Shown here: positions 2,390 through 48,901 of the stretch, one piece after another | How the letters are laid out: each line of letters starts with the position of its first letter | Position numbering within the stretch: position 1 is the first letter of the stretch | Assembly (NCBI GenBank): GCA_965262725.1 | Contig: OZ253555.1 | Location: 1,984,001 to 2,048,000 of the forward strand | DNA length: 64,000 nt | From: Dehalococcoidia bacterium | GTDB lineage: Bacteria > Chloroflexota > Dehalococcoidia > UBA2979 | Direction of reading: 5' to 3' | Notes under the pieces: model-generated | The model's database searches: none | What the model was told of the DNA's origin: nothing | Seen by the model: the letters and a program-made list of their open reading frames with translations, nothing else | Position numbers and translations under genes: made by a program

Positions 2390-3120
2390 CTAGAACGCGT
2401 CGCTGTAGTTGCTGAACGAGTCAAACTGGTCCAGGTCACAGACCGCTTCAGCCCTGACCCTGCGGCCGTCCTGCCTGACGTTGATGTCGTGGCAGTCGCC
2501 GTCGTCCACCACCTCTTCGAGGTCGTCTTCGGCTCGTTCGGCGTCCCTCGCGGAATCGAATTCAGCCAACAGCACGATCTTGGCTTCCCGTGAGTTCTCT
2601 TTCTCCACCGACAATCCGTAGACCTCGCAGCCGTCCCAGCCGCATTCGTCGCCTGTGACTATCCGCACATACCCGGAAGGGAGGTCTCCCCATACATCAC
2701 CCAGCTCGTCATCGAGCGACGACCCGCCCCGGTCGCGCCGCCGGAGCATGTCCTCCATATCCTCCTCGTAATAGGCGATGAGGACAGCGCCCCGGGCAGG
2801 AAGGCAAACGCTTCCCATGTGCTCGATGAGTCTATCCATACTTCCACACTGGCGCTCTCGTCGTCGTCGTAGTCCCGATCGTCCAGTTCGTCCTGCAGGT
2901 CACGGTCGTCCACTTCGCCCAGGAGGTAGACGTCGCCCCCGCCGTCTTCTTCGGAGAACGCCATGAAGTCCAGGTCCCGGAGGTCCGCGTCGTAGGCGTC
3001 AAAAGCCCAGTTGGATTCCACGCTCCTTCGGAAGTCCCTGAGGTCGTCATCGCCGTCAATCGCGGCGACATCGAAGAAAGAACCCCGGCGGCATCGTCGG
3101 AGAGCATCTGCATGAGGTCC
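2390..3120 (-). pseudogene. Acidic hypothetical protein, frameshifted and 5'-truncated
   Basis: Asp/Glu-rich coding blocks continue across different frames (..FFDVAAIDGDDDLRDF.. then ..GAVLIAYYEEDMEDM..SDAF). Confidence 0.5.
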
Positions 3121-32363: not shown

Positions 32364-33162
32364 CCGGTGTTTCGTCCAGTTTTCCCATCCGGGGGCCGAG
32401 CACGAGCCCGCTCCGGGCGGCGGCAAGGCGTGGAACACCCACGCGAGCCGGCACGCGCGGAAGTTCATGGAGTTCCCCGGCGAATGGATGGAGGAGGACG
32501 GGTCGGCGCGCACGGGGCGCCTGAGGGCGTGGGGCGAGTGGGAGGCCGAGTCACACCTCATCCGCGAGCTGAGGCGACCGGGCGGTGACCGGCTCTTCCC
32601 GCGCTTCCTCTGGGAGCCCTACTACGTGCCGAAGGAGGATCACCGCCGCCTGCACAACACCGACCCCTTCATCTTCGGGTCACGCTTCCTGTACTCGAAC
32701 TGCGGGCAGCCCTCCAGTCCGGGCCTGCGGGCGCTCGGACGCGGCTCGGTGATCGCCTTCGGAAGCCTGAAGAAGATCGCGGGAGAGCGGCGGTGGATGG
32801 TCGACACGGTGCTGGTCGTCGCCGGCTCGGTCGAGTACGATGCGCACGAGGCCCGCGAGGCGCTGGCCGGCCCGACAAGCGAGGCGTTCATCGAGGTCAC
32901 GGCCGGGCCGATCGCCACCACCGAGGAGGGGTCGTTCCGGCTCTACCGGGGGGCGACGCCCGACGATCCGGTCGACGGCATGTTCAGCTTCTTCCCCGCG
33001 GAGTACTTCAACCCGAGGCACCAGCAAGGCCCGAAGGGCCTCTGGCGCGAGCGGTCCGCGGACGAGCGGCGCGGCCTGTGGGATTCCCTGGTCGCGCAGG
33101 TCCGGCGGGCCGGACTTGTACTCGGTACGCACGCGATCCCGCCGGAGAGGCGCGAAGCGTGA
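32353..33162 (+). CDS. Hypothetical protein, possibly a nucleotide-modification-associated (Nmad-like) domain
   Basis: QFSHPGAEH, WGEWE, HNTDPFIFG..YSNCGQ..GSVIAFGS; overlaps the upstream gene. Confidence 0.55.
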   Translation: MSSNRCFVQFSHPGAEHEPAPGGGKAWNTHASRHARKFMEFPGEWMEEDGSARTGRLRAWGEWEAESHLIRELRRPGGDRLFPRFLWEPYYVPKEDHRRLHNTDPFIFGSRFLYSNCGQPSSPGLRALGRGSVIAFGSLKKIAGERRWMVDTVLVVAGSVEYDAHEAREALAGPTSEAFIEVTAGPIATTEEGSFRLYRGATPDDPVDGMFSFFPAEYFNPRHQQGPKGLWRERSADERRGLWDSLVAQVRRAGLVLGTHAIPPERREA

Positions 33163-33244
33163 CGCCGGCGGTGCGAGCACCGCGCGTCCCGCGCCGCAAC
33201 GCGGCGTCCCCGAAGCCGTGGTCCGGTACAGGGGCGGTGGGCCG

Positions 33245-34276
33245 ATGACACGGAGGCTGATGATCGCACAGCCGTTCGACCTCGCGCTGACGCTGGAGAT
33301 GGGACAGACGTTCCGCTGGCGGCGCGTCGGCGACGAGGACGTCTGGGCGCGGGACTGGGGCGACCCGCCGGAGCGATGGCGAACGGGCGGCGCCTGGTAC
33401 TCGGGGGTGCTGGGCCCGCACCTCGTCCACATCCTGCAGAGCGGCGACGGCGTCGAGTACCGCGTGGGCGGCGCGGACGGCGAGCGGCACGACGTCGACC
33501 TGAGCACGACGCTCCGTGACTACTTCCGGCTCGACGATGGCATCACGGACGTCTACGACGCACTGCGCCGCGATCCGGTCGTGGCCCGCGCGGTCGACCG
33601 CTACCCGGGGTTGAGGCTCCTCCGCCAGGAGCCGTGGGAGTGCCTGGTGTCCTTTGTCTGCTCCCGCACGCGGACGATCCGTGCCACCAGGGGGAGTGCG
33701 GAGACCATCGCCAAACTCAGCGCGCACACGGTGAGACTGGACGGTGACTGTCGCCCCGTCTTCCCCGGCGCCGAGATCCTGGCCGGCCGGGCGAGTGCCG
33801 ACCTGAGCGCGCTGGAACTCGGTCTGGACAAGCCCCGCGTCATTCTCCGGCTGGCCCGGTGGCTCGCCGCCGACCCGCAGGGCCTGAGCCGTCTCGCGGG
33901 AACCTCGGTGTCCACCGAGGACGCGGTGCGACGGCTCGACGGCTTCCCGGGCATCGGTCCCAAGATCGCGAGCTGCGTCGCGCTGATGTCGCTGGACAAG
34001 CTCGATGCGTTCCCGGTGGACAGGTGGGTGCAGCGGGCCCTCGCCTCGTGCGACCTGTCGTCGCTGCCCACGGCCCTTGCTGAGAGGGTCCGGGGTCCCC
34101 GCACCCTCACCGGGCCCCAGCAGTACCGCGTCGCCGAGTGGGCGCGGACGCACTTCGGCCGCTACGCCGGCCACGCCGGCCAGTACCTCTTCCACTCGGC
34201 GGAGCCCCGCAAGGAGCGCGCGCGCCGGGGGCGAGGGGCTGCGCGGACGCGTGCCGTCGTGGAGCATGCCGGATGA
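33245..34276 (+). CDS. 8-oxoguanine DNA glycosylase-like (OGG N-terminal plus HhH-GPD)
   Basis: TLEMGQTFRW, GLRLLRQEPWECLVSF, FPGIGPKIASC, FPVDRWV motifs. Confidence 0.88.
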   Translation: MTRRLMIAQPFDLALTLEMGQTFRWRRVGDEDVWARDWGDPPERWRTGGAWYSGVLGPHLVHILQSGDGVEYRVGGADGERHDVDLSTTLRDYFRLDDGITDVYDALRRDPVVARAVDRYPGLRLLRQEPWECLVSFVCSRTRTIRATRGSAETIAKLSAHTVRLDGDCRPVFPGAEILAGRASADLSALELGLDKPRVILRLARWLAADPQGLSRLAGTSVSTEDAVRRLDGFPGIGPKIASCVALMSLDKLDAFPVDRWVQRALASCDLSSLPTALAERVRGPRTLTGPQQYRVAEWARTHFGRYAGHAGQYLFHSAEPRKERARRGRGAARTRAVVEHAG

Positions 34277-36533: not shown

Positions 36534-37152
36534 CGAATGGGGTGCGCCAGGCTAACTGGTGCTTGGGCAGGAGGTGCAAGTCCTCTACGGCGAAGGAGCA
36601 AGCCACTCCACGCGGTTCCGCGAGCCGTGCGCGACTCGTCGCGAGGCGAGCCGTGAAGCGTCGGCAGCGGGGTAGGCGGGCGGAGCTATTGAGCATCGAA
36701 AGATGCATAATCCGGAGTGCCGAGGCTTTCCCATTGGTCGAAGGCAACACCGGCGACGGCGCTTCTGGCGAGCCGTCGTCGGGCTCTGCGGTGTCAAAGA
36801 ACTCACGCACGTCTGCACGTCCAGCACCGGGACCTCATATGGATGCCTCGGTTGTCAAGCCCCGTCCAGCGGTACTTGAACGTCCGGTCTGCGGCGGCGG
36901 CGGTCGCGCGAGGATGACGACTCCGGGGTGGCGAAGGAGGGATGAGCGGGAATTGTTCGACGTTTTGTCATTCTCAGAGGTATAGCCAGAAGTTGTGGAT
37001 GAGCCAGGAGAGAGAGGCGGCGTACCCTCCCTGAGTCAACAGGAGTGGCCGGGAAGTGTCGATCGCCAGGGTCATTGAGCCACGCGTCGCCACGGTCATT
37101 GGACCACCCGGGACGCCGGTAGGCGGCTTGATATCAGTGAGCGTCTAGCGCG

Positions 37153-37926
37153 TCAATCACCTCCCGTCTGCGCCTCGAGCAGGGCGCGGTGCGGCGAGAG
37201 CCGCTGGCGGTAGCTATCGCCCTCGATCACGATCTGGTAGCTGGCGTTCGCGAGCCGGTCGAGGGCGCTGTTGCCGAGGATCGGGTCGTCGAAGAGACCC
37301 AGCCATTCCTCCACGGCGCGGTTCGAGGTGATCACGAAGCTCGAGCTGCGGTGGCGCCCGATGACCAGCTCGTAGAGGTCGATGGACTGCTGCGCGCTGA
37401 GGCGATGGAGCCCGAGGTCGTCGAGGATGAGCAGGTCGGGCGCGAGGAAGCTTCGGAAGACCTTCTCGGCCGAGTGGTCGACGCGGGCCTGCGCCATCTC
37501 GCGGAAGTAGTGGTCGGCCGGGGCGAAGCGCACGGTGCGTCCGGAGCGGACGGCTGAGTAGCCGAGCGCCTGGGCTAAGAAGCTCTTGCCGACGCCGACG
37601 GGGCCGACGAGCAGGACGTGCTCGCGGCGGTCGAGGAAGTGCAGCGAGAAGGCGGCGTCGAGCAGGCGGCGGTCGAGCCGGATGGCGGCCGCCCAGTCGA
37701 AGTCCTCGAGGCGGCAGAGCTGCTCGAAGCCGGCCTGGCGCAGGCGCAGCTCCAACCGCCCGTGGTCGCGGCGGCTCACCTCGTCGACGAGCAGGATCTG
37801 CAGGAAGTCCGCGTAGTCGAGGTGGTCGCGCCGCGCGAGGGCGATGCGCTCGGGCAACGTGTCGAGCATACGGCCGAGCTTGAGGCGCTTGAGCAGCGGA
37901 CGGAGGTCTGAGGTGGTGGCGGTCAT
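37153..37926 (-). CDS. istB: IS21 helper ATPase
   Basis: GPVGVGKS, LILDDLG, TSNR, ALDRL; ATGA overlap with istA. Confidence 0.93.
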   Translation of the reverse strand: MTATTSDLRPLLKRLKLGRMLDTLPERIALARRDHLDYADFLQILLVDEVSRRDHGRLELRLRQAGFEQLCRLEDFDWAAAIRLDRRLLDAAFSLHFLDRREHVLLVGPVGVGKSFLAQALGYSAVRSGRTVRFAPADHYFREMAQARVDHSAEKVFRSFLAPDLLILDDLGLHRLSAQQSIDLYELVIGRHRSSSFVITSNRAVEEWLGLFDDPILGNSALDRLANASYQIVIEGDSYRQRLSPHRALLEAQTGGD

Positions 37927-39503
37927 CGTGGTGCTCCTGTCGGGGTCTGCGTGCGGGACTGTGCGAAGACGGAGCCCGAGTGGGCGAAGCGCCCCGGAGG
38001 CGGCGGCAGCTCGGGCTGGTCTGGGGTGCTCTCCTGGTCGAGGGCCTCGACGAGGATGCGCTCGAGGCGGCGCACGTCGATGAGGTCGACCTCGAGCGCG
38101 CGGCGGCAGGCGGCGTCGAGGCGGTCCGGGGAGTAGCGCTCGGCGAGGCGCAGCAGCTTGTGGCCCTGCCGCAGCTTCGCCCAGGGCAGGGAGCCCTCGA
38201 AGAGACGCTCGGCGTAGGCGCCCACGGCCTCCCCCAGCTCGGCGGCGCGGCGCTGTATCCAGTCGGGCGCCCGCCTGGTGTAGGGGGTGAGCTCGGCCGG
38301 GTAGTCGTTCGGGTCGGTGGCGCGGCCGCCCCGGCGCTGGCGCGGGTGGACCTTGATGAGCTGACCGCGGTGGTAGATGCGCACCAGCTTCGAGCCGAGC
38401 TGCACCTCGACCTTCTGGCGGGGCGGGCAGGCCGTGGACGGCACCGAGTACAGCGCGTACTGGCAGGCGATGTGGTGGTCGGGATGGACCGTGGCGGTCC
38501 GCCAGTCGGGGACCTCGTAGGGCTCGCCGTCCCAGGGAGCGAGGAGAGGGAGCTCCTCCTCCCGGAAGACCTCGAGCGGCCGGCGGCGGGTCGTGCCGTG
38601 GATGCGCTGTCCCGCCACCTCCAGGCACCAGCTGCGGGCGGCGGAGCGCAGGTCGACGACGTCCCGGAAGTCGCCGCCCTTGAAGAGGCGCTCGCGCACG
38701 TAGGGGATGCTGCGCTCGACGCGCGGCTTGTCGCGGGGATGACGCACGCGCGCGGGGTCGGTGATGAAGCCGCGGTGGCGGGCGTACTCGAGGAAGCCCC
38801 GCGTGAAGCGCGGGTGCAGCGCGTCGGCCCCGGCGACGGCGGCCGGGAAGTTATCGATGACGAGGTAGCGGGGCACGCCCCCGAAGAAGGACCAGGCCTC
38901 CTCCAGGCCCTCGATCACAGCGTCCAGCTTCTGGCTGGTGGTGGGCCACACAAAGCAGTGGCGGGAGTAGCGCCAGACGACGACCAGCGCCCACACCGCG
39001 CGCCGGCGGCCGCTCTCGGGGTCCCGGATGAAGCCGAGGCGGCCGAAGTCCATCTCCGCCACCTCGCCCGGCGGCCCGTCGTCCATGCGCACGGTCGACG
39101 GCAGCCGGTGGCGCCAGCCGCGGCGCCGGATGAAACGCCGCAGCGTGGTGTAGGAGACCTCGCAGCCTCGTCCGGCGAGGAGCTCCTGGATGCGCGTCAG
39201 TTGCAGGCGGTCGGTCTCAAGCCAGCGCTCGATCTGCTCCGCCCAGGGCGAGAGCAGCTCTTCGCTCGGCGCCTCGACCTGCCGCGGGCCGGAGAGGCTC
39301 AGCGTCGCCAGCGCGGCGAGCTGCTCCTCACTCGGCTCGGGACCGTCAGGTGTGAGGCCGGCCGCTTCGGCCGCGTCGATGTAGCGGCGGACCGTCTGAC
39401 GCGACAACCCCATCCCGCTGGCGATGCGGCGCTGGCTGAGCCCCGCCTGCCAGCGACGAATGATCTCCTGAATCTCCACCCCGTGTACCTCCCGGTAGGC
39501 CAT
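37923..39503 (-). CDS. istA: IS21 transposase
   Basis: AEMDFG, LVIDN, PRDKPRVER, HGTT motifs. Confidence 0.93.
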   Translation of the reverse strand: MAYREVHGVEIQEIIRRWQAGLSQRRIASGMGLSRQTVRRYIDAAEAAGLTPDGPEPSEEQLAALATLSLSGPRQVEAPSEELLSPWAEQIERWLETDRLQLTRIQELLAGRGCEVSYTTLRRFIRRRGWRHRLPSTVRMDDGPPGEVAEMDFGRLGFIRDPESGRRRAVWALVVVWRYSRHCFVWPTTSQKLDAVIEGLEEAWSFFGGVPRYLVIDNFPAAVAGADALHPRFTRGFLEYARHRGFITDPARVRHPRDKPRVERSIPYVRERLFKGGDFRDVVDLRSAARSWCLEVAGQRIHGTTRRRPLEVFREEELPLLAPWDGEPYEVPDWRTATVHPDHHIACQYALYSVPSTACPPRQKVEVQLGSKLVRIYHRGQLIKVHPRQRRGGRATDPNDYPAELTPYTRRAPDWIQRRAAELGEAVGAYAERLFEGSLPWAKLRQGHKLLRLAERYSPDRLDAACRRALEVDLIDVRRLERILVEALDQESTPDQPELPPPPGRFAHSGSVFAQSRTQTPTGAPR

Positions 39504-39689
39504 CGCTGCTCCCTCCGCTGGGGATGCAGGCGATGGTGGCCGTACCGGCGGCCCGAGTGGTCAGACCCCCCGGAGGGGTGGCTCAATGACCTTGGCGAAG
39601 TGGCACATAGACCCTGGCGATCTCGCCGTTTGCTGGTCTATAGATCCTGGCGATTCACACGGGAAGCCGGCCGGGGAGGAGTACGCCGG

Positions 39690-40967
39690 ATGTTGAGGAT
39701 AGTCCATGAGGGAGGCGAGCGGGAAGCGGGGCCGGGGACGCAGGTCGGACTGGACGAGCTCTGCCGCATGGCCGCCCAGGAGATGCTCGGGGTGGCGCTG
39801 GAGGCCGAACGGCAGGCCTACCTCGAGCGCCACGCGGGCGCGGTCGATAGAGAGGGCCGCCGCGTGGTCGTCGGCAACGGCTACGCCCGCGCGAGAGAGA
39901 TCACGACCGCCGCGGGACGGGTCGCCGTACAGGCGCCGCGCGTCGACGACCGCCGTCCCGGCGAGCGCTACATCTCGGCGCTTCTGCCGCCCTACATGCG
40001 GCGCTCGCCCAAGGTGACCGAGGTGTTGCCGCTGCTCTACCTGCGCGGGCTCTCGACGGGCGACTTCCTGCCCGCCCTGTCGGCGTTCTTCGGCTCGGGG
40101 GCGGGGCTCTCCGCCTCGACCGTGGGGCGGCTCACGGAGGCGTGGCAGGCCGAGCACGAGCGCTGGCAGCGACGCAGCCTGGCCGAGGTCGACTACGTCT
40201 ACCTCTGGGCGGACGGCGTCCACTTCACCGTGCGTCTCGAGGAGGACCGGCTCTGCTGCCTGGTGCTGGTCGGGGTGCGCCCGGACGGCCGCAAGGAGCT
40301 GGTGGCCGTGCAGGACGGCTACCGTGAGGACACCCAGTCCTGGCTCGACCTGCTGCGGGACCTGCGCGAGCGGGGCATGCGCGACCCCGAGCTGGCCGTC
40401 GGCGACGGGGCGCTCGGGTTCTGGGCGGCGCTGCGGGAGGTCTTTCCCCGGACCCGCGAGCAGCGCTGCTGGGTGCACAAGACCGCGAACGTCCTGGCGG
40501 CGCTGCCCGAGCGCGTCCAGGGGGAAGCGGCGCGGGCGCTCCACACCGTCTCCGGAGCCGCGACGCGCGCCGGGGCGCTGGATGCGGCGCGCGCCTTCGC
40601 CGGGCAGTTCGCGCAGTGGCCGAAGGCGACAGCGAAGGTCGCCGACGACCTCGAACGGCTGCTCGCGTTCCACGACTTCCCGTCCGAGCACCACGTGCAC
40701 CTGCGCACAACGAACCCGATCGAGTCCACCTTCGCCACGGTCCGGCTGCGCCAGCGCGTCACGAAGGGCGCCGGCTCCCGGTCGGCGGGACTGGCGATGG
40801 CCTACAAGCTGCTCGACGCGGCGCAGCAGCGCTGGCGGCGGGTGAATGCCCCGCATCTCGTCGCCGTCGTCCGGGCGGGCGGCGTCTTCGTCGATGGCGT
40901 CCTACAGGAACGAGCCGTCAGCCCGGATGCGAGCGACGATGCACGCCACGGGAGGTACGCCGCCTAA
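39690..40967 (+). CDS. IS256 (Mutator-type) transposase
   Basis: YLRGLSTGDF, LWADG, GDGALGFW, QRCWVHK, RTTNPIES; GAGGAG RBS. Confidence 0.93.
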   Translation: MLRIVHEGGEREAGPGTQVGLDELCRMAAQEMLGVALEAERQAYLERHAGAVDREGRRVVVGNGYARAREITTAAGRVAVQAPRVDDRRPGERYISALLPPYMRRSPKVTEVLPLLYLRGLSTGDFLPALSAFFGSGAGLSASTVGRLTEAWQAEHERWQRRSLAEVDYVYLWADGVHFTVRLEEDRLCCLVLVGVRPDGRKELVAVQDGYREDTQSWLDLLRDLRERGMRDPELAVGDGALGFWAALREVFPRTREQRCWVHKTANVLAALPERVQGEAARALHTVSGAATRAGALDAARAFAGQFAQWPKATAKVADDLERLLAFHDFPSEHHVHLRTTNPIESTFATVRLRQRVTKGAGSRSAGLAMAYKLLDAAQQRWRRVNAPHLVAVVRAGGVFVDGVLQERAVSPDASDDARHGRYAA

Positions 40968-41202
40968 CTTGCCCTGGCCAGCGATCCACAACTCTTGACG
41001 ATATCTCTCATTCTCATATCCGCGGGTTGCCAGTGGCAGAGCCGCATGACCCTTCTTCGTCAGGAGCAGGCGCATTCTGATATCGCGGGTTGGCGACGCG
41101 AAGCGTCGTTGCCGCATGGTTCCGTCGCGCAGTCTCCGAAACGTAGTCCCGCTTATCCGTCCTTCACCGCCCCCGGAGTCGAGGTCCCCGCCCTCCGCGG
41201 CC

Positions 41203-41336
41203 ACCTCCGCTGCATGCTCCTCACTCGCGGCGATGCCTGAGAGCCCCTGCTCCGTCGGGCGGATGTGCTCATCCGTCATCTCGACCCTCTGCAGGTAGCT
41301 GCCGAAGGCCGCCTGGGCGCCCTTCTCCTCGAAGGA
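41203..41336 (-). pseudogene. Diverged internal fragment of the IS1111 recombinase between the two RNA units
   Basis: SFEEKGAQAAFGSYLQRVEMTDEHIR..EEHAAE versus SFEEVGDQAAFDGYLQRVEMADEHIR..EEYAPE (~42086-42220). Confidence 0.85.
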
Positions 41337-41586
41337 GATGACGACTCCGGGGTGGCGAAGGAGGGATGAGCGGGAATCACTCGACGTTGTGTCACTCTCA
41401 TAGTCGCGGGTTGCCAGTGGCAGAGCCGCATGACCTTTCTTCGTCGGGAGGGGGCGCCGTCTGGGAACGCGGGTTGGCGACGCTTCGCGTCGTTGCCGCA
41501 TGGTCCCGTCGCGCGATCTCCAGAATGTGGTCCCGTTCATCCGTCCTTCACCGCCCCCGGAGTCGACGTCTCCGCCCTCCGCGGCC
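41337..41586 (-). ncRNA. Bridge/seek RNA unit A
   Basis: Long closing stem (41343.. / ..41564) and two GCGG..CCGC hairpins flanked by guides; target guides CTGGGA (41461-41466) and GGTCCCG (41502-41508) match the occupied site. Confidence 0.8.
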
Positions 41587-41631
41587 GGTCTGTCCTCCTC
41601 TCCGTCCGCTCCCTGTTCGTGGCCAGCCGGC

Positions 41632-42744
41632 TCAGGCGGCCTGCCGCCGCTGGTCAGCGTGGGTGCGCAGCACCGCCCAGATGGCGGCGAGCAGCTCCCG
41701 CGCCACGGCCACGACGGCGACCTGCGACGGCTTGCCTCGCTCCTTGAGATGCCGGTAGCGCCGGGACATCCGGGAACCGGTCTTGTCGGCCATCGCGACC
41801 GCCCAGCCCGGCTGGCCCTCCCGCCGTCTGCGCAGCGGCGCCCCGACCCGGTACGGGCGGATGCTGTGCCACCCCGCCTCGACCAGCACGCGCCGGACGT
41901 GGGTGTTCCCCGTCTTCGTGATGCCGCCGCGCCGCGTCCGCGGGCCTGAGCTGTGCTCGCTCGCCACCAACCCCACGTACGCTGCCAGCTGGTCGGGGCT
42001 TCCGAATCGCGTGATGTCGCCGAGCTCGCCCAGGATCGTCATGGCGGTGACCGTGTCGATGCCGCGGAAGCAGCGGAGGAGTCCCGCCTCCGGCGCATAC
42101 TCCTCACTCGCGACGATGTCTGAGAGCCTCTCTTCCATCAGGCGGATGTGTTCATCCGCCATCTCCACGCGCTGCAGGTAGCCGTCGAATGCCGCCTGGT
42201 CGCCCACTTCCTCGAAGGAGAGCGAGCGCAGCCAGCACCGGTGCTCTCGGGTCCACGTAGACTTACCATAATGGTGGCCCGAGCGCAGCAGGAACCCCGA
42301 CAGTTGCACCTGGGCCGTCTTGCGGGCCGCAACGGCGTCCTCGCGCCCACGGGTGAGGTTGCGCACAGATTCCTGCCGCTCAGTCGGCTGGTGCACCTCG
42401 GTGAGCAGTCCCGCGCGCAAGAGATGCGCCAGGTTCCGCGCGTCGCGGCGGTCCGTCTTGACGCGGTCTCCCGGCTTTGTGGGGATCAGCGCCGGCGCGA
42501 TGACGCGGCAGTCGATCCCCTTCGCATCGAGAGTGCGCTTCAGCCCGAACCCGGTCGGGCCCGCCTCGTAGCAACAGACCACGGAATCCCCGGCCTCGCG
42601 GCGCAGTCGCCGCGCCAGCGCCGCCACGGACGTCGGCTCGTTGGCGAGCTGCCACTCTTCGGGCTTCTTCTCCCCGTGCAGAACGGAGACGTTGATCGTC
42701 CGCGCGTGCACGTCGAGGCCCACGTATAGCTTCGTCTGGTCCAT
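41632..42744 (-). CDS. IS110-family DEDD recombinase/transposase
   Basis: VGLDVHA, CYEAGPTG, KTDRRDA (DEDD) and SEHSSG catalytic-serine region. Confidence 0.95.
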   Translation of the reverse strand: MDQTKLYVGLDVHARTINVSVLHGEKKPEEWQLANEPTSVAALARRLRREAGDSVVCCYEAGPTGFGLKRTLDAKGIDCRVIAPALIPTKPGDRVKTDRRDARNLAHLLRAGLLTEVHQPTERQESVRNLTRGREDAVAARKTAQVQLSGFLLRSGHHYGKSTWTREHRCWLRSLSFEEVGDQAAFDGYLQRVEMADEHIRLMEERLSDIVASEEYAPEAGLLRCFRGIDTVTAMTILGELGDITRFGSPDQLAAYVGLVASEHSSGPRTRRGGITKTGNTHVRRVLVEAGWHSIRPYRVGAPLRRRREGQPGWAVAMADKTGSRMSRRYRHLKERGKPSQVAVVAVARELLAAIWAVLRTHADQRRQAA

Positions 42745-43305
42745 CTGGTCTGCCCCCTACCCCTTCCATGTTCCGGTCCGGTTCCGCTCCGATGTTGCAC
42801 TCGGAACAGAAACCGACACCGGTTCTCAAGGTGTCGAGGCATCCATAGGGTCTGGGAGGGCTCGGCCTTGTCCCTGCGTGTTGCCACGCCGGGACCGCAA
42901 CGGAAAGGGCGATTCCGTAATCCGTTGACGCACGAGGTCGAGCAATCAGATCCGGCCATAGTAGTGATGAGGGCGGCGAACAAAGAGGAGTAGACACCCT
43001 CGGCGGAGTCGACGGAGCGAAGGGCCGGACCGGAGGGGAAGCTGGCGAAGCCCGGCACTGGCGGGACACTGCGCCCGCGTTTGGTGTCACTCGGGCCACC
43101 CGGCTACGGCACCTCTTGGGTGCCGTCTGACCTGACGGAGGAGCCGTATGCGTTAACGCGCACGTACGGATCTGTCCGGGGGGCGGCCGGCAACGGCCGT
43201 CCCTACCGGAATTGCTCCCTGTGGCTGTGACGTGATTCGTTCAAAAACCATTGTCCCAGCTACAGCGGAGCACCCAACCGCAGACGCTCGCGCACTCTTC
43301 TTCGG

Positions 43306-45222
43306 TTCGCGGTAGGGATGCCGGTTGCCCGGCACCCCCCGCACAGATCCGGACGTGCCCTCTCGGGCATCCGGCTCCTACCTCAAGTGCGTGACGGCAA
43401 ATCGCTCCGCAGGCCACGGGTGAAGGATGGAGATTCGGGGCCAGTGTTTCTGGCACAGGGCAAGGATGCGCTCCCACGTGAAACGGTCGCGCTGCGACCG
43501 CCGTCGGAGAACGCGCAGCCAGAGCCGCTTCACGAAACGAACAAACTGCGTGAGCGCCGGCGAGCTGGTCGGCACCGCGTAGTAGCCAAGCCACCCACGC
43601 AGTACCCGCCCCAGCCACTGCCCCGTCGTCACGGGGTTGTCGTGCATGCGCCGCCACAACTCGGCCTTGATGGCCTTCAGCGTCCGGCGCATCCGCTTCG
43701 CAACGGGCTTGCGCCCCAGCCCGAATCTCCCGTCGCGTCGGGTCCGGCAGTAGTGCGTCATGCCGAGAAAGTCGAACGTCTCCGGTCGGCCCTCCCCGCG
43801 CTTCCGCCTGTTCGCCAGCGCGAACCTGCCGAACTCAAGTAGACGGGTCTTCTCCGGGTGCAGCTCCAGCCCGTAGGCCGCGAACCGCTCCCGGAGTGCC
43901 TCCATGAACCGCACCGCATCGCTGCGGTGCTGGAACCCCAGGACGAAGTCATCGGCATACCGCACGATGTACGCCTCGCCCCGGACCTCCCGCGGTCGCC
44001 ACTCGCGCGCAAACCAGTCGTCGAGCACGTTGTGCAGGTACACGTTCGCAAGCAGCGGCGATATCGGCGCCCCCTGCGGCATCCCCCGCACGAAATCGAC
44101 TTCCGGCTCCGCGTCCATGACGCCGACGCTCAGCCACTTTCGTATCAGGCGCAACACCCGCTGGTCCCCGATGCGCATCTCCAGAAACGACATCAGCCGC
44201 CCCCGGTCGATGCTGCCGAAGAACTCCCGGATGTCCACCTCGACAATCCAGCTGACCTTGCGCCGTTCGACCGCGTAGGCCAGTGCGTCCAGCGCGTCAT
44301 GCGCCGAACGCCCCGGCCTGAAGCCATGCGAGAAGCCGTAGTAGCCCGACTCGTAAATCGGGTTCAAAAGATTGTCCACCACCGCCCGCTGAACGATCTT
44401 GTCCTCCAGCGAGACGATACCGAGCGGCCGTATTCCCCCGTCCGGCTTGGGTATCTCTACCCGCCTGACGGGCTTCGCCCGGTACGCTCCACGGTGTACG
44501 CGGCCATGCAGGTCGAGCAATCGCTCGTCCAGCCCGTCCCCGTATTCTCGCCACCTCACCCCGTCCACGCCCGGAGCCGCATCCCGCTTCAACGCGAGAT
44601 ACGCCTCCCGCAGCGCCTCCGGCGTGATGTGGTGCAAGAGCGCGGTGAGTTTCTCTCCCGGCTTCCGTTCCACGAACTGCCGTATCCTCTCCGCTCCGGG
44701 TGACACCGCACCCCGACTCTGCGTCCGGACCGTGCCGGTGCTTTGAGGATTCCTCTCGGTTGGGGCCCTTTGCTCCAGCGACTCCGCCGGGGCTCGCGCC
44801 CCCTTGTTCGCCGCCTTCATCGCTCGTACGGCCCCATCAGACTGCTGCGCATCGTTCATCATCGGCTACGGTTTACGTCCCTTCCCGACGCGGTCCCGGC
44901 GTACGACTCGTCGGGACAACGCGCAGCTCTCCCAAGTCCCGGCGATAGACGTGTGTGCGTGCATGGGGTCTTCGACACCGTGGGGCCCGACCACGACTCG
45001 CCAGTAGCGCCGTCGCCGGTATTGCCTTCGACCAATCCAAGAGCCTCGGCACCCCAAATGGCCCTTTCGATGCTCATTAGCCCCGCCCGCACACCCCGCT
45101 GCCGACGCTTCACAAGCCGCCTCGCGACGACCCGCGCACGGCTCGCGGAATGACATGAGTGGCTAGCTCTTTGCCATAGAGGACTTCCACCTCCTGCCTA
45201 CTCGCCAGTTAGCCTGGCGCTC
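43306..45222 (-). mobile_element. Group II intron with RT (bacterial class E-like)
   Basis: 5' GAGCG, domains V/VI at 43306-43380; EBS1 TGGATT (45034-45039) pairs with exon GATCCA; the exons rejoin to CCCTGATCCA|CCGAAGAAG as in IS1380 copy 2. Confidence 0.88.
43378..44862 (-). CDS. ltrA: Group II intron reverse transcriptase/maturase (no En domain)
   Basis: APGVDG, IPKPDG..RPLGI, GFRPGRS, PQGAPISPLLAN, YADD, FDFLG, domain X. Confidence 0.95.
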   Translation of the reverse strand: MMNDAQQSDGAVRAMKAANKGARAPAESLEQRAPTERNPQSTGTVRTQSRGAVSPGAERIRQFVERKPGEKLTALLHHITPEALREAYLALKRDAAPGVDGVRWREYGDGLDERLLDLHGRVHRGAYRAKPVRRVEIPKPDGGIRPLGIVSLEDKIVQRAVVDNLLNPIYESGYYGFSHGFRPGRSAHDALDALAYAVERRKVSWIVEVDIREFFGSIDRGRLMSFLEMRIGDQRVLRLIRKWLSVGVMDAEPEVDFVRGMPQGAPISPLLANVYLHNVLDDWFAREWRPREVRGEAYIVRYADDFVLGFQHRSDAVRFMEALRERFAAYGLELHPEKTRLLEFGRFALANRRKRGEGRPETFDFLGMTHYCRTRRDGRFGLGRKPVAKRMRRTLKAIKAELWRRMHDNPVTTGQWLGRVLRGWLGYYAVPTSSPALTQFVRFVKRLWLRVLRRRSQRDRFTWERILALCQKHWPRISILHPWPAERFAVTHLR

Positions 45223-45237
45223 TGGATCAGGGCTTAT

Positions 45238-46896
45238 CCCTGATCCACCGAAGAAGAGTGCGCGAGCGGCTGGGGTTGGGTGCTCCGCTGTAGCTGGGAC
45301 AATGGTTTTTGACCGAATCACGTCACAGCCACAGGGAGCACCCATTCGATGCTAGCAACGAGCAGCCCCGACCGGATACACATCGCCTTCGACGACGACC
45401 GCCTCGTGGACCACGCGGGCCTGCTGCTCCCGGCCACGCTCGCTGGCCGGCTCGGCCTCCGTGAACTGGCAGACGCCCAGCTCGACCTCGGTGACGCAGC
45501 GGGGCGGGCGAACGTCGGCGACAAGCTGATGACTCTCATCGCCTCGGCGCTCGCGGGCGGCGACTGCATCGATGACGCCGATGCCATGCGCTCAGGCGGC
45601 GCCGGGCGCGTGCTCGGCTGCACCGTGAAGGCGCCGTCCACCCTCGGGACCTTCCTGCGCAGCTTCCGGTGGGGCCACGTCCGCCAGCTCGACCGCGTCA
45701 GCCGCGAGTTGCTGGCCCGCAGCTGGGCGGCCGGGGCGGGACCCGGCGCGGCGCCGTTCACGATCGACCTCGACTCGACGCTCTGCGAGACCTACGGCCT
45801 CGCCAAGGAGGGCGCCCGGCACCACGGCTACACGGGCGTGCGCGGCTATCACCCGCTGCTCGCGGTGGCGGCCGGGACGGGTGAGGTGCTGATGGCGCGG
45901 CTGCGCGGGGGCCGTGCCAACACCGCTCGGGGGGCCGCACACTTCCTGCGTGAGACGGTGGCGCGGGTGCGCGACGCCGGGGCCTCGGGGCAGCTCACGC
46001 TGCGCGCCGACAGCGGCTTCTACAGCCACGCTGTCGTCGCCGCCTGCCGCAAGCAGGATGTCCGCTTCTCCATCACCATTCGCCAGCAGCCGAACGTACG
46101 CCGGCTGATCGAGGCGATACCGGAAGAGGACTGGACGCCGATCCCGTACTGGCTGGCGGGCGGCGCCGCTGTCGCCGAGACGACCTACACGCCGTTCCAG
46201 CACACGGGGGACGCCACCGCGGTGCGGCTCATCGTGCGGCGCGTCACGCCGACGCCCGGCTCACAGCTCGCGCTCTTCGTGGACTACAGTTACCACGCCT
46301 TCATCACCAACCGCGCGGGGGAGATGATGGAGCTGGAGGCCGACCATCGCCGTCACGCCGAGATCGAGAACGCGATCCGCGACCTCAAGTACGGCGTCGG
46401 GTTGAACCATCTCCCCTCGGGCCGCTTCGCCGCGAACGCGGCGTGGCTCGCGGTGCAGGTGATCGCGCACAACCTCGCCCGCTGGACGGCGCGCCTCGGG
46501 CTCGGCGAGGGAATCATGACGACCAGGACGCTCAGGCGGCGCTACTTCTCTCTCGCCGGACGGCTCACCCGCTCTGCCCGGCGGTGGACTCTGCACCTCC
46601 CGAAGCGCTGGCCCTGGGCAGAGCAGCTGGCAGCCGCGCTCGCGCGACTACGGGCGATACCGCTCCCGGCCTGACGCTCGCTCACAGCGCCGACCCGGGT
46701 CCGAGGCTCGCGCCAGCATGCCCGCGCACGCCTCGCGCACCCTCGCGCCCGCACCCTCAGCGCCCACGAGCGGTGCTGAGCGACGGCTTCTGGCTCCGGC
46801 CCGCCCCCGGCGCCGCCCGGCGAACGCCGGCACGCCCGCCGAACTCTCCGGCAGCCCGGCACCCCGCCTCGTCAAGCTTCGATCGGTGGATTCGAG
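45238..46896 (+). mobile_element. IS1380-family copy 2 (intact)
   Basis: Same ends as copy 1; TSD CTTAT at 45233-45237 and 46897-46901. Confidence 0.93.
45349..46674 (+). CDS. IS1380 transposase
   Basis: Nearly identical to 35208-36533. Confidence 0.93.
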   Translation: MLATSSPDRIHIAFDDDRLVDHAGLLLPATLAGRLGLRELADAQLDLGDAAGRANVGDKLMTLIASALAGGDCIDDADAMRSGGAGRVLGCTVKAPSTLGTFLRSFRWGHVRQLDRVSRELLARSWAAGAGPGAAPFTIDLDSTLCETYGLAKEGARHHGYTGVRGYHPLLAVAAGTGEVLMARLRGGRANTARGAAHFLRETVARVRDAGASGQLTLRADSGFYSHAVVAACRKQDVRFSITIRQQPNVRRLIEAIPEEDWTPIPYWLAGGAAVAETTYTPFQHTGDATAVRLIVRRVTPTPGSQLALFVDYSYHAFITNRAGEMMELEADHRRHAEIENAIRDLKYGVGLNHLPSGRFAANAAWLAVQVIAHNLARWTARLGLGEGIMTTRTLRRRYFSLAGRLTRSARRWTLHLPKRWPWAEQLAAALARLRAIPLPA

Positions 46897-47575: not shown

Positions 47576-48901
47576 ATGGTGGGGGAGCTCAAGATCTGGG
47601 CCCTGGGCGATGGCGCCGGGGTGGAAGTCGTCGAGAGCGTGACCGTGGGGCTGGAGGATCGTCTTGAGGAGACGCTGGTGCGGCGTCCCGAGATGCTCGA
47701 GCCCGGGCTTCACCTCGTCGGACGCCAGACACCGACCGAGGGCGGCCCGCTGGACCTGCTGGGCGTCGATGAGGACGGCCGGCTGGTCGTCTTCGAACTG
47801 AAGCGGGAGAAGCTGACCCGCGAGGCGGTGACGCAGTGCATCGACTACGCCTCGGCACTGAATGTCAGGGCGCCCGACCAGCTCGCGGACCTCATCTCGG
47901 AGCACTCGGGTAGCGGAGGCGTCGAAAAGATCGATAATTTCGAGGAGTGGTACCTGGAGCGTTTCGCGGAGAAAGAACTCAGCGATCTGTTGCCGCCGCG
48001 GCTCGTGCTCGTGGGACTCGGCGTGGATGCACGGGCGGAGCGGATGGCGCGGTTCCTCTCGGAGGGCGGCATCGGCATCTCCATGCTGACGTTCTTCGGC
48101 TTTGAGCACTCGGGAGAGACGCTGCTCGCGCGGCAGGTCGAGGTTGAGCGGGAGGAGGCCGTTCCATCCGGGCCGCGACCCCGCCGGAGTGCGGCCGAGC
48201 GCCGCGTGGCACTCGAGGACAGGCTGGACGAGAGGGATTTGACCGACCTATTCGCAGAGATCGCCGACGTGCTCCGTCGCGCACTCCCCGAGTCCTCCCA
48301 GCGAATCGGCGCGTGGGGAATGAGCTTCCGACTGCCTTCCGGGGAAGGCCGGAGCCGCTTCTGCCACCTCTGGGTACAGGAGGGAGGCGGGGCAAGAATT
48401 CAGTGGTTTGCGAACTCGCAGCACTACGACGCCGATGCACTCAACGCCCTTGGGCAGGAGGCCGAACGGCTCGGCTGGCTGCCCGAGCGGAGCGGCTTTG
48501 CCCTCGACATCGCCGGCGATGAGGAGTGGCAGCACGTGCGCGAGGGCCTTACCGGCTTCGTCACGACCGCCCTGGAATCCTGGAATCCCGCGCCAGAGAG
48601 GGGGACCGGAACCTTCCAGGAGCGGGTGCGGTCCTATGTCCGAGAGGTTCCGACTGGCAAGGTGGTGACGTACGGACAGGTGGCGCAGGAAGCGGGTTCT
48701 CCCGGTGCGGCGCAGTCGGCGGGGAACATCATGCGCGCCCTTCCCGATGAGACCGACATCCCGTGGCATCGCATCGTCGACGCAGCGGGGCGGCTCGCCG
48801 CGGATGAGGTGCAGGAGCAGCGCAGGAGGCTCGGTGACGAGGGCGTCGGCGTCGGAGAGGATGGATCCGTCGACCTCGAAGCGCACCGGTGGCGCGGGTA
48901 A
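47576..48901 (+). CDS. NucS-like nuclease fused to a C-terminal alkyltransferase-like (ATL) domain
   Basis: LDLLGVDEDGRLVVFELKR at the N-terminus; VPTGKVVTYGQVA..IPWHRIV..EQRRRLGDEGV at the C-terminus. Confidence 0.88.
   Translation: MVGELKIWALGDGAGVEVVESVTVGLEDRLEETLVRRPEMLEPGLHLVGRQTPTEGGPLDLLGVDEDGRLVVFELKREKLTREAVTQCIDYASALNVRAPDQLADLISEHSGSGGVEKIDNFEEWYLERFAEKELSDLLPPRLVLVGLGVDARAERMARFLSEGGIGISMLTFFGFEHSGETLLARQVEVEREEAVPSGPRPRRSAAERRVALEDRLDERDLTDLFAEIADVLRRALPESSQRIGAWGMSFRLPSGEGRSRFCHLWVQEGGGARIQWFANSQHYDADALNALGQEAERLGWLPERSGFALDIAGDEEWQHVREGLTGFVTTALESWNPAPERGTGTFQERVRSYVREVPTGKVVTYGQVAQEAGSPGAAQSAGNIMRALPDETDIPWHRIVDAAGRLAADEVQEQRRRLGDEGVGVGEDGSVDLEAHRWRG

Follow-up and report, generated by a model that had tools for sequence, protein, structure and literature searches.

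Why does a mobile element lie exactly between the two halves of a conserved ribozyme motif, and what directs it to that position? The question is raised by a stretch of 64,000 nucleotides from a Dehalococcoidia bacterium (GenBank assembly GCA_965262725.1, contig OZ253555.1, positions 1,984,001 to 2,048,000 of the forward strand), referred to here as the window, in which an insertion sequence (IS) of 6016 bp (36836..42851, minus strand) splits a group II intron. We consider it likely that this IS belongs to the IS110 family as an IS1111-type element, that an RNA guides its movement by recombination at a CT core, and that the intron is its cognate, not its exclusive, target. This view is built on the family, ends and core of the element, on the complementarity of its guides to the site, on the covariation of guides and flanks across lineages, and on the distribution of copies in the genome to which the window belongs (G000; 3.67 Mb, single contig) and in its relatives, among them G083, of the same genus, and G079, of another genus.

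The window holds two matches to the Rfam family RF02005 (group-II-D1D4-6), for which 49 bits served as the cut-off for intron calls: one at 36577-36803 (plus strand, 166 bits) and one at 44966-45187 (minus strand, 170 bits). The first belongs to intron 1, whose 5' segment (36542..36835, plus strand, beginning GTGCGCC...) was delimited by the Rfam match and by contigs that skip L002:586-3333, L002 being the coordinates of a locus with a 2093-bp copy of the element, and whose 3' segment (42852..43212, plus strand, ending ...CCCTACCGGAAT) was delimited by alignment and contigs. The intron ends (GTGCG... at 36542 and ...GGAAT at 43212) are fixed by further contigs, from which precisely 36542-43212 is missing. 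Without the insert the intron measures 653 nt, shows a domain V-like hairpin at approximately 43140-43175 (read by eye) and contains no reverse-transcriptase (RT) open reading frame (ORF); it is therefore an ORF-less derivative that needs its protein in trans. At the left junction, CGGGAC (36828-36833) and CT (36834-36835) precede the start of the element at 36836 (CATATGGATGCCTCG...), and at the right junction the end of the element at 42851 (...CGAGGCATCCATAGGGT) is followed by CT (42852-42853) and GGGAG (42854-42858). The duplication at the junctions consists of CT alone, with no long target duplication. An earlier note on this DNA had placed the element in CGGGAC|CT|GGGAG of intron 1, which proved right, with the limits corrected from 36822-42865 to 36836-42851. 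The site, which that note had put near the domain I/II junction, lies 293 nt into the intron and starts 25 nt beyond the end of the Rfam match; folding all 653 nt to minimum energy did not yield a domain map dependable enough to support that placement.

The second match belongs to intron 2 (43306..45222, ends approximate, minus strand), which carries an RT ORF (44862..43378; Pfam RVT_1, 2e-36) and was identified by RF02005, Pfam and a pattern search. Its homologous site, CGGGACTTGGGAG at 44929-44941 (minus strand), has a TT core and is uninterrupted, as the earlier note had read it and as both the pattern search and the alignment of the two introns confirmed. The 13-mer alone is unremarkable, at least one chance match of the site being found in 31 of 100 shuffles of the window, and the comparison is valid because the introns are homologous in an alignment that runs through the insertion site.

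The undisturbed form of the intron 1 site was also found. Contigs of three public runs (represented by contigs only) join L002:877 to L002:2973, skipping 2095 bases, that is, the 2093-bp element plus one CT, and a 536-base contig from an RNA library spans the empty site with 219 + 317 bases on its two sides and 10 other letters. Therefore, an intron-1-type copy with a CT core and without the element occurs in nature. Intron-1-type sequence without the IS was seen in metatranscriptome contigs of three studies (L002:500-3400; RNA libraries X15, X17 and X18, and also X3), and in run X3 the contig joining the empty site had a depth of 152, versus approximately 9.5 for the contigs covering the IS. 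Contigs that connect L002:585 with L002:3334 were considered as ligated exons and set aside, since copies of the host IS without an intron would account for them just as well; they give no evidence of splicing.

Read along the minus strand, the element consists of a left end, a DEDD transposase gene, a noncoding RNA (ncRNA) unit A, a fragment of a second transposase gene, an ncRNA unit B and a right end. Four copies in G000 have these same ends. The transposase gene is intact (41632..42744, minus strand; 370 aa) and its product matches the Pfam domains DEDD_Tnp_IS110 (PF01548; 2.2e-17) and Transposase_20 (PF02371; 5.2e-21), both beyond the curated cut-offs, and has the C-terminal motif GLVASEHSSG. 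The region downstream of it, which holds the ncRNA, is long and non-coding, and 12-bp subterminal inverted repeats occupy 36839-36850 (ATGGATGCCTCG) and 42835-42846 (its complement), 3 bases inside one end of the element and 5 inside the other. The element thus adds a new member to the IS1111 branch of the RNA-guided IS110 elements.

Evidence for the guiding RNA begins with unit A (41343..41563, minus strand), which alone is strongly structured (fold z = -5.55). A consensus of ten ncRNA units from six genomes has an outer stem and two arms, with compensatory changes in 9 of its 58 pairs. In each arm an internal loop encloses a conserved hairpin (AUGCGG...CCCGCG), with variable positions on both sides and one guide per side. 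In the target loop of unit A the 5' guide CGGGACC (41508..41502, minus strand) equals the left half of the target plus the first core base in the plus-strand sense of the window and can pair with the bottom strand, and the 3' guide UUCCCAG (41467..41461, minus strand) is the reverse complement of CT+GGGAA, the target being CT+GGGAG, and can pair with the top strand. This complementarity to both halves of the site, together with the IS110/IS1111 domains of the transposase, supports the claim of the earlier note that the IS is RNA-guided.

The relationship between guide and flank holds beyond this copy. Relatives with 56-65% protein identity, from five other genomes, possess one unit built on the same plan, but their guides and flanks are not those of our element. 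When cognate and non-cognate pairs were scored for 7 lineages over the 7 positions of each guide, the 5' guide fitted its own flank at 6-7 of the 7 positions in all seven lineages, and non-cognate pairs scored 2-6, the score of 6 arising only between two guides that are one base apart. A 5' guide that changes together with the flank across lineages supports RNA guidance. The donor guides likewise covary with the element ends, as ACGGUC with TACGGT and AUAUCAG with GATAT in the relatives, and as AGGGUC with TAGGGT and AUAUGAG with CATAT here. The interior of the element is uncovered in three RNA-library runs, which, being contigs, are uninformative on expression, and the ncRNA is presumed from its sequence to be expressed.

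In the present element the fit to the ends is found in the second unit. Unit B, of which the 5' part lies at 41008..41179 (minus strand), is paralogous to unit A (87% alike), and its second arm forms a donor loop (AGGGUC at 41053..41048 and GAUAUGAG at 41020..41013, minus strand) in which AGGGUC and AUAUGAG fit the element ends (..TAGGGT|CT|CATAT..) with zero mismatches, the joined ends reading ..CATAGGGT-CT-CATATGG... The corresponding donor-type loop of unit A has AAGGUC (41437..41432) and ACUAUGAG (41404..41397) on the same strand. In the most probable division of roles, the target loop comes from unit A and the donor loop from unit B. Uninterrupted copies of the element measure 1970-2093 bp and each contains both ncRNA units; therefore, the composite is the transposing unit.

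The distribution of copies shows how strongly the element is tied to the intron. All four copies in G000 lie at the CGGGAC|CT|GGGAG position of an intron, three of them in introns of the intron 1 type, of which all three full-length representatives are occupied (a 107-nt fragment of this type lies elsewhere in the genome). The fourth copy lies in a different ORF-less intron, whose 5' part is 98% like intron 2 and whose 3' part is of a third type. The window IS differs from the other G000 copies at 24-25 of approximately 1970 bases, as against 1 of 655 for the host introns (p = 0.01), and the fourth copy is identical to the second, in a different intron, from which it follows that at least three insertion events took place in G000. 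The GGGAC..GGGAG motif is conserved in the RF02005-type intron family of two genera, and since the full 12-13-bp match CGGGAC|CT|GGGA(G) occurs almost only in this family, the intron is the best-matching site and probably the cognate one. It is probably also a harmless place to insert.

The same guides tell a different story in G083, which has eight identical copies of 1973 bp and one cut copy. The left halves of its sites read xGGGAC in 6/8 (the remainder being CGAGAC and CAGGAC), and the right halves GG in 9/9, GGG in 4/9 and GGGA in 2/9; only one of the nine sites is an intron, as judged by Rfam and flanks. Five of 10 flank fragments contain domains that reach the element or end at most 7 residues from it (MoCoBD_2, KshA_C, GPP34, SBP_bac_5 and a DDE transposase), in a sixth the domains lie clear of the junction, and the other four gave no match. 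The halves of the single intron of the family in G083 flank two different IS copies on two contigs (L025 and L026), a split that could be due to recombination between IS copies, to half-match recombination or to misassembly. Zero perfect 12-mers remain in G083, and three other genomes of the genus, without a match to this transposase, hold four, none in an intron. Among distant relatives (56-65% amino acid identity), whose guides differ, none of nine loci has an intron within 1.5 kb. In G083 the homologous insertions thus lie mostly outside introns, an outcome that the earlier note had itself named as refuting its proposal, and the conserved intron motif proposed by the earlier note as a recurrent landing site stands as such, given the guide match, the four G000 copies and its presence in two genera, but not as an exclusive one.

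We envisage that the target loop of unit A would pair with both halves of the site on opposite strands and the donor loop of unit B with the element ends, that the strict need would be only about GGGAC|CT|GG, and that the element would enter genes where, as in G083, the intron sites are exhausted. Natural sites usually match the 3' guide at CT plus 2-4 bases.

Several observations weigh against RNA guidance to a cognate intron site as set out here. The 3' target guide discriminates poorly, with cognate scores of 4-6 out of 7 against non-cognate scores of 2-6, and arm 2 of unit A has one mismatch to each element end, its donor-type 3' guide varying among copies (GAG, AAG, CAG); this variation can be read as decay, the alternative being a working single-RNA model. 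Of the perfect 12-mers CGGGACCTGGGA in G000, two stand empty, at 1682999 inside an intron and at 2140850 in non-intron sequence. The G000 copies may in part be duplicates carried along with the host intron or the host IS. In the ncRNA region Rfam gave no family matches, the lone sR1 match (E = 0.33) being taken as chance. Finally, the two target guides of unit A (41461-41508) have CGGGA and UCCCG-like segments that can pair in free RNA (GGGA/UCCC), a partial complementarity that stems from the near-direct repeat in the target (GGGAC..GGGAG), and the target loop may be closed when the RNA is free.

Selection after insertion could also produce the pattern seen in G000. The element would target approximately GGGAC|CT|GG anywhere, insertions into genes would be purged, and those in introns, being neutral, would persist and be copied with the intron and its host IS. 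The genome has 40 empty GGGACCTGG sites, just one of them intronic; the eight identical copies of G083, several in genes, point to a recent burst that preceded selective filtering; and the intron-1-type copies share one insertion point across copies of a 1.66-kb DDE_Tnp_1_4 IS. Against this, the 3' guide fits GGGA(G) beyond the GG that such a target would require and full-length matches are almost only intronic, the intron was hit in at least three separate events in G000, and other IS110-family elements, described below, have guides that fit further positions within this intron family. We regard purging as a possible explanation of the G000 pattern, although a doubtful one.

The opposite position, close to that of the earlier note, is that the element is a group II intron specialist, with a ribozyme motif as its dedicated landing site and a C-to-T change in the core that protects the intron. 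The four G000 copies are all in introns, and the occupied intron sites in that genome number 0 of 14 with a TT core and 4 of 5 with a CT core (Fisher p = 0.0013, for copies that are not independent); within the guide footprint, the TT introns differ from the occupied sites solely at the first core base. In the accessible part of the IS621 study, CT-core pairing is described as strongly preferred and non-CT cores as less efficient (Durrant et al. 2024; PMC11208160). However, the TT intron copies, of the intron 2 type, are 99.5-100% alike except for one at 85%, so that the 14 empty sites count for little more than one observation. The CT intron site at G000:1682999 is likewise unoccupied, and the 5' flank of the fourth occupied copy is 98% identical to the TT-type intron. 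Introns of G079 read GGGAC-CG-GGGAG and GGGAC-CT-GGGAG at the site in a genome where nothing beyond fragments of a 62-63% relative turned up, so that selection by this IS is not required to explain the core variation; the two bases between the conserved blocks are simply variable among introns. The G083 sites, one intron in nine under the same guides and with gene or transposase domains in five of 10 flank fragments, also speak against specialization, which we consider unlikely. That a TT core protects an intron is, as a separate idea, plausible from the comparison of sites and fits both the counts and the IS621 data. It is highly improbable that the protein makes the site choice, for example via the subterminal repeats, with coincidental guide matches, since, even though RNA expression and binding are presumed from sequence, seven lineages with different flanks each have a matching 5' guide, donor guides track changes in the ends, and an unrelated IS lineage with four guide/flank sets follows the same logic.

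A second intron-directed guide in unit B, which the earlier note had suggested from the likeness of CGGAAC to the intron motif, is not supported. The target-type loop of unit B contains CGGAACC (41124..41118) and AUAUCAG (41083..41077, both minus strand). The former differs by one base from the unit A guide, a likeness that exists because the units are paralogous, and the latter predicts CT+GATAT, for a full site CGGAAC|CT|GATAT. In a search of 99 genomes of the order, this 13-mer (CGGAACCTGATAT) occurred once, in one genome, at G000:C1:2411043-2411055 (L069), in the lone exact copy of a diverged, four-copy, non-intron repeat of 250 bp. As about 0.1 exact chance matches would be expected by our own rough estimate, the match is taken as unproven. 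The other copies of the repeat lie near 328868, 1509059 and 3384791; it was considered as the end of another IS1111-type element, and no matching inverted end was found.

Guides aimed at the same introns exist nevertheless in the unrelated IS110-family lineage just mentioned, here called IS#2. One copy lies in the host intron of the fourth copy of our element (L070, G000:C1:1953667-1957710), with approximately 1.55 kb between its junctions, a 348-aa transposase with both Pfam domains and the subterminal repeat ATGAGGGTCG. All four full copies in G000 (the others at 337667-339236, 3305822-3307391 and 3505950-3507519) are at GGCGAACA|AG|GGGGCG, approximately 422 nt into the intron, three of them in intron-2-type introns, and the RNA of IS#2 matches one flank with GAACAAG (7/7) and the other with CCCCCU (6/8). 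Relatives of 89-90% identity have different guides, each matching its own flanks, and some lie outside introns (three loci in G077, one in G083). In G079, the IS#2-type guides GUCAGGC(U) and CAGUUAG fit GCCAGG|CT|AACTG, the conserved 5' end of the intron family; there a 90% relative of IS#2 lies approximately 10 nt inside an intron (L080, C1:1962899-1966942; ~1340-1360 and 2990-3100), which itself seems to be inside another intron copy, a possible twintron, and at L071 an intact intron 5' end abuts an IS#2-type left end. Three guide programmes from two IS lineages therefore address three positions of one intron family: CGGGAC|CT|GGGAG at about nt 293, GCGCCCC|CT|TGTTCG (antisense) at about nt 422 and GCCAGG|CT|AACTG at about nt 10. 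We tentatively suggest, as something quite possible, that the RF02005-type introns of this Dehalococcoidia family are a repeatedly and independently acquired target class, with at least three guide programmes, two IS lineages and two genera involved. If so, a retroelement would serve as a multi-copy safe harbour towards which IS guides evolve, and, as a side claim, the composite element would work with two RNAs, the target loop coming from one and the donor loop from the other.

The length of the window copy is due to nested insertions. The 3' end of the element (36836..36976, minus strand), which aligns with uninterrupted copies and contains the 3' strands of the unit B stems, the right end and the subterminal repeat, is separated from the 5' part of unit B by an IS256-family element (36977..41007, plus strand; Pfam Transposase_mut, 9.3e-53) flanked by a 9-bp target duplication, TCATTCTCA, at 36968-36976 and 41008-41016. 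Because this insertion parts the donor guide of unit B from its 3' stem strands, unit B is broken in the window copy, which is probably disabled in cis. The IS256-family element is itself split at about 37056-39660 by an IS21-family element with an IstA gene (39503..37923; rve/Mu-transpos_C_2) and an IstB_IS21 domain in the 3' half of the ORF 38628..37153 (approximately 37920..37153, by eye). A 103-aa ORF from 39706 and a second frame, which ends at 40967 and encodes the Transposase_mut part, together make up the split IS256-family transposase; G000:261079-262426 is 100% identical over 39660-41007 and has the same frame split, explained by a frameshift in the gene or by programmed frameshifting. 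Between units A and B lies the fragment of the second, paralogous transposase gene (41190..41340, minus strand), with 78-83% identity to the middle of the intact one. At its junction with unit A (41330-41345, and also in the G000 copies and in L024), three different deletions, of 117, 123 and 120 nt relative to the 2093-bp form, were seen in different copies, and loss of this segment appears to be recurrent.

The introns have their own association with a mobile element. Intron 1 sits approximately 94 nt inside a 1.66-kb DDE_Tnp_1_4 IS, and two inverted copies of that IS, whose ends face each other (43213-43306 and 45238-45340), enclose intron 2, its 5' exon ending one base past a perfect hairpin (GGATCAGGG..CCCTGATCC; 45224-45246). 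The RF02005-type introns and this IS, with approximately 14 copies each in G000, seem to travel together. The nest of mobile elements is flanked by two DNA-repair genes, a 441-aa ORF (47576-48901) with a NucS C-terminal nuclease domain and an O6-methylguanine methyltransferase DNA-binding domain, and a 478-aa ORF (32840-34276) with an OGG_N domain. Four matches above the cut-off to Ms_AS-4, an actinobacterial small RNA family of Rfam, were observed in L032, L060 and L075, all IS110-family loci, and may be part of another repeat.

The locus thus presents a layered parasitism, with an IS21-family element in an IS256-family element in an IS110-family element in a group II intron in another IS, and a natural example that relates bridge or seek-RNA guides to actual landing sites. 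The full 12-13-bp match lies in a multi-copy ribozyme, perhaps a safe harbour, and the spill into genes at matches of approximately 9 bp bears on the off-target behaviour of bridge recombinase tools. Furthermore, the CT, TT and CG cores in otherwise identical sites are a natural test set for the core requirement of the IS1111 branch, which is less studied than IS621.

Landing sites of IS110/IS1111-family elements include transposon inverted repeats and integron attC sites. REP (repetitive extragenic palindromic) elements are landing sites as well, according to the accessible part of PMC11208160, and like the introns they are multi-copy and presumably harmless places to land, the present site differing in that it is inside a ribozyme. 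A full-text literature search, covering titles and the openings of abstracts, returned no report of an IS110-family element aimed at group II introns, a result to which the supplementary target tables of PMC11187229 and PMC11208160 might add such cases. The closest relatives in kind are the IS1111 elements ISEc11, ISKpn4 and ISPa11, for which the accessible text of Siddiquee et al. (2024; PMC11187229) describes a seekRNA, subterminal repeats and a downstream non-coding region, and an order in which the guide complementary to the top strand (in element orientation) lies 5' of the other. Our element agrees with them in its DEDD transposase, its subterminal repeats, its downstream non-coding region and the order of guides on opposite strands. 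However, its transposase has 370 aa instead of the 330-350 aa stated there, the motif given as GL-P----S(t)G appears as GLVASEHSSG, with A in place of P, two tandem ncRNA units are present instead of one, and a group II intron motif serves as the cognate target.

For IS621, Durrant et al. (2024; PMC11208160) describe a left target guide that base-pairs to the bottom strand and a right one that base-pairs to the top strand, with the core taken in. Our element shares with IS621 the CT core, the target and donor loops, the guide senses and the inclusion of the core in the pairings. It differs in that its RNA is 3' of the transposase gene, the strand bearing CT runs antisense to that gene, the hairpins of the RNA are of another form, and natural insertions tolerate a right side matched at only CT plus 2-4 bases. 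A 2026 preprint (10.64898/2026.08.14.744561) describes partial IS110 modules and their non-coding units that are duplicated in tandem; here, too, a partial second module of transposase fragment and ncRNA stands in tandem in all copies. What the present element adds to that description is that the composite transposes as a unit in two genomes, with a probable split of function between its two RNAs.

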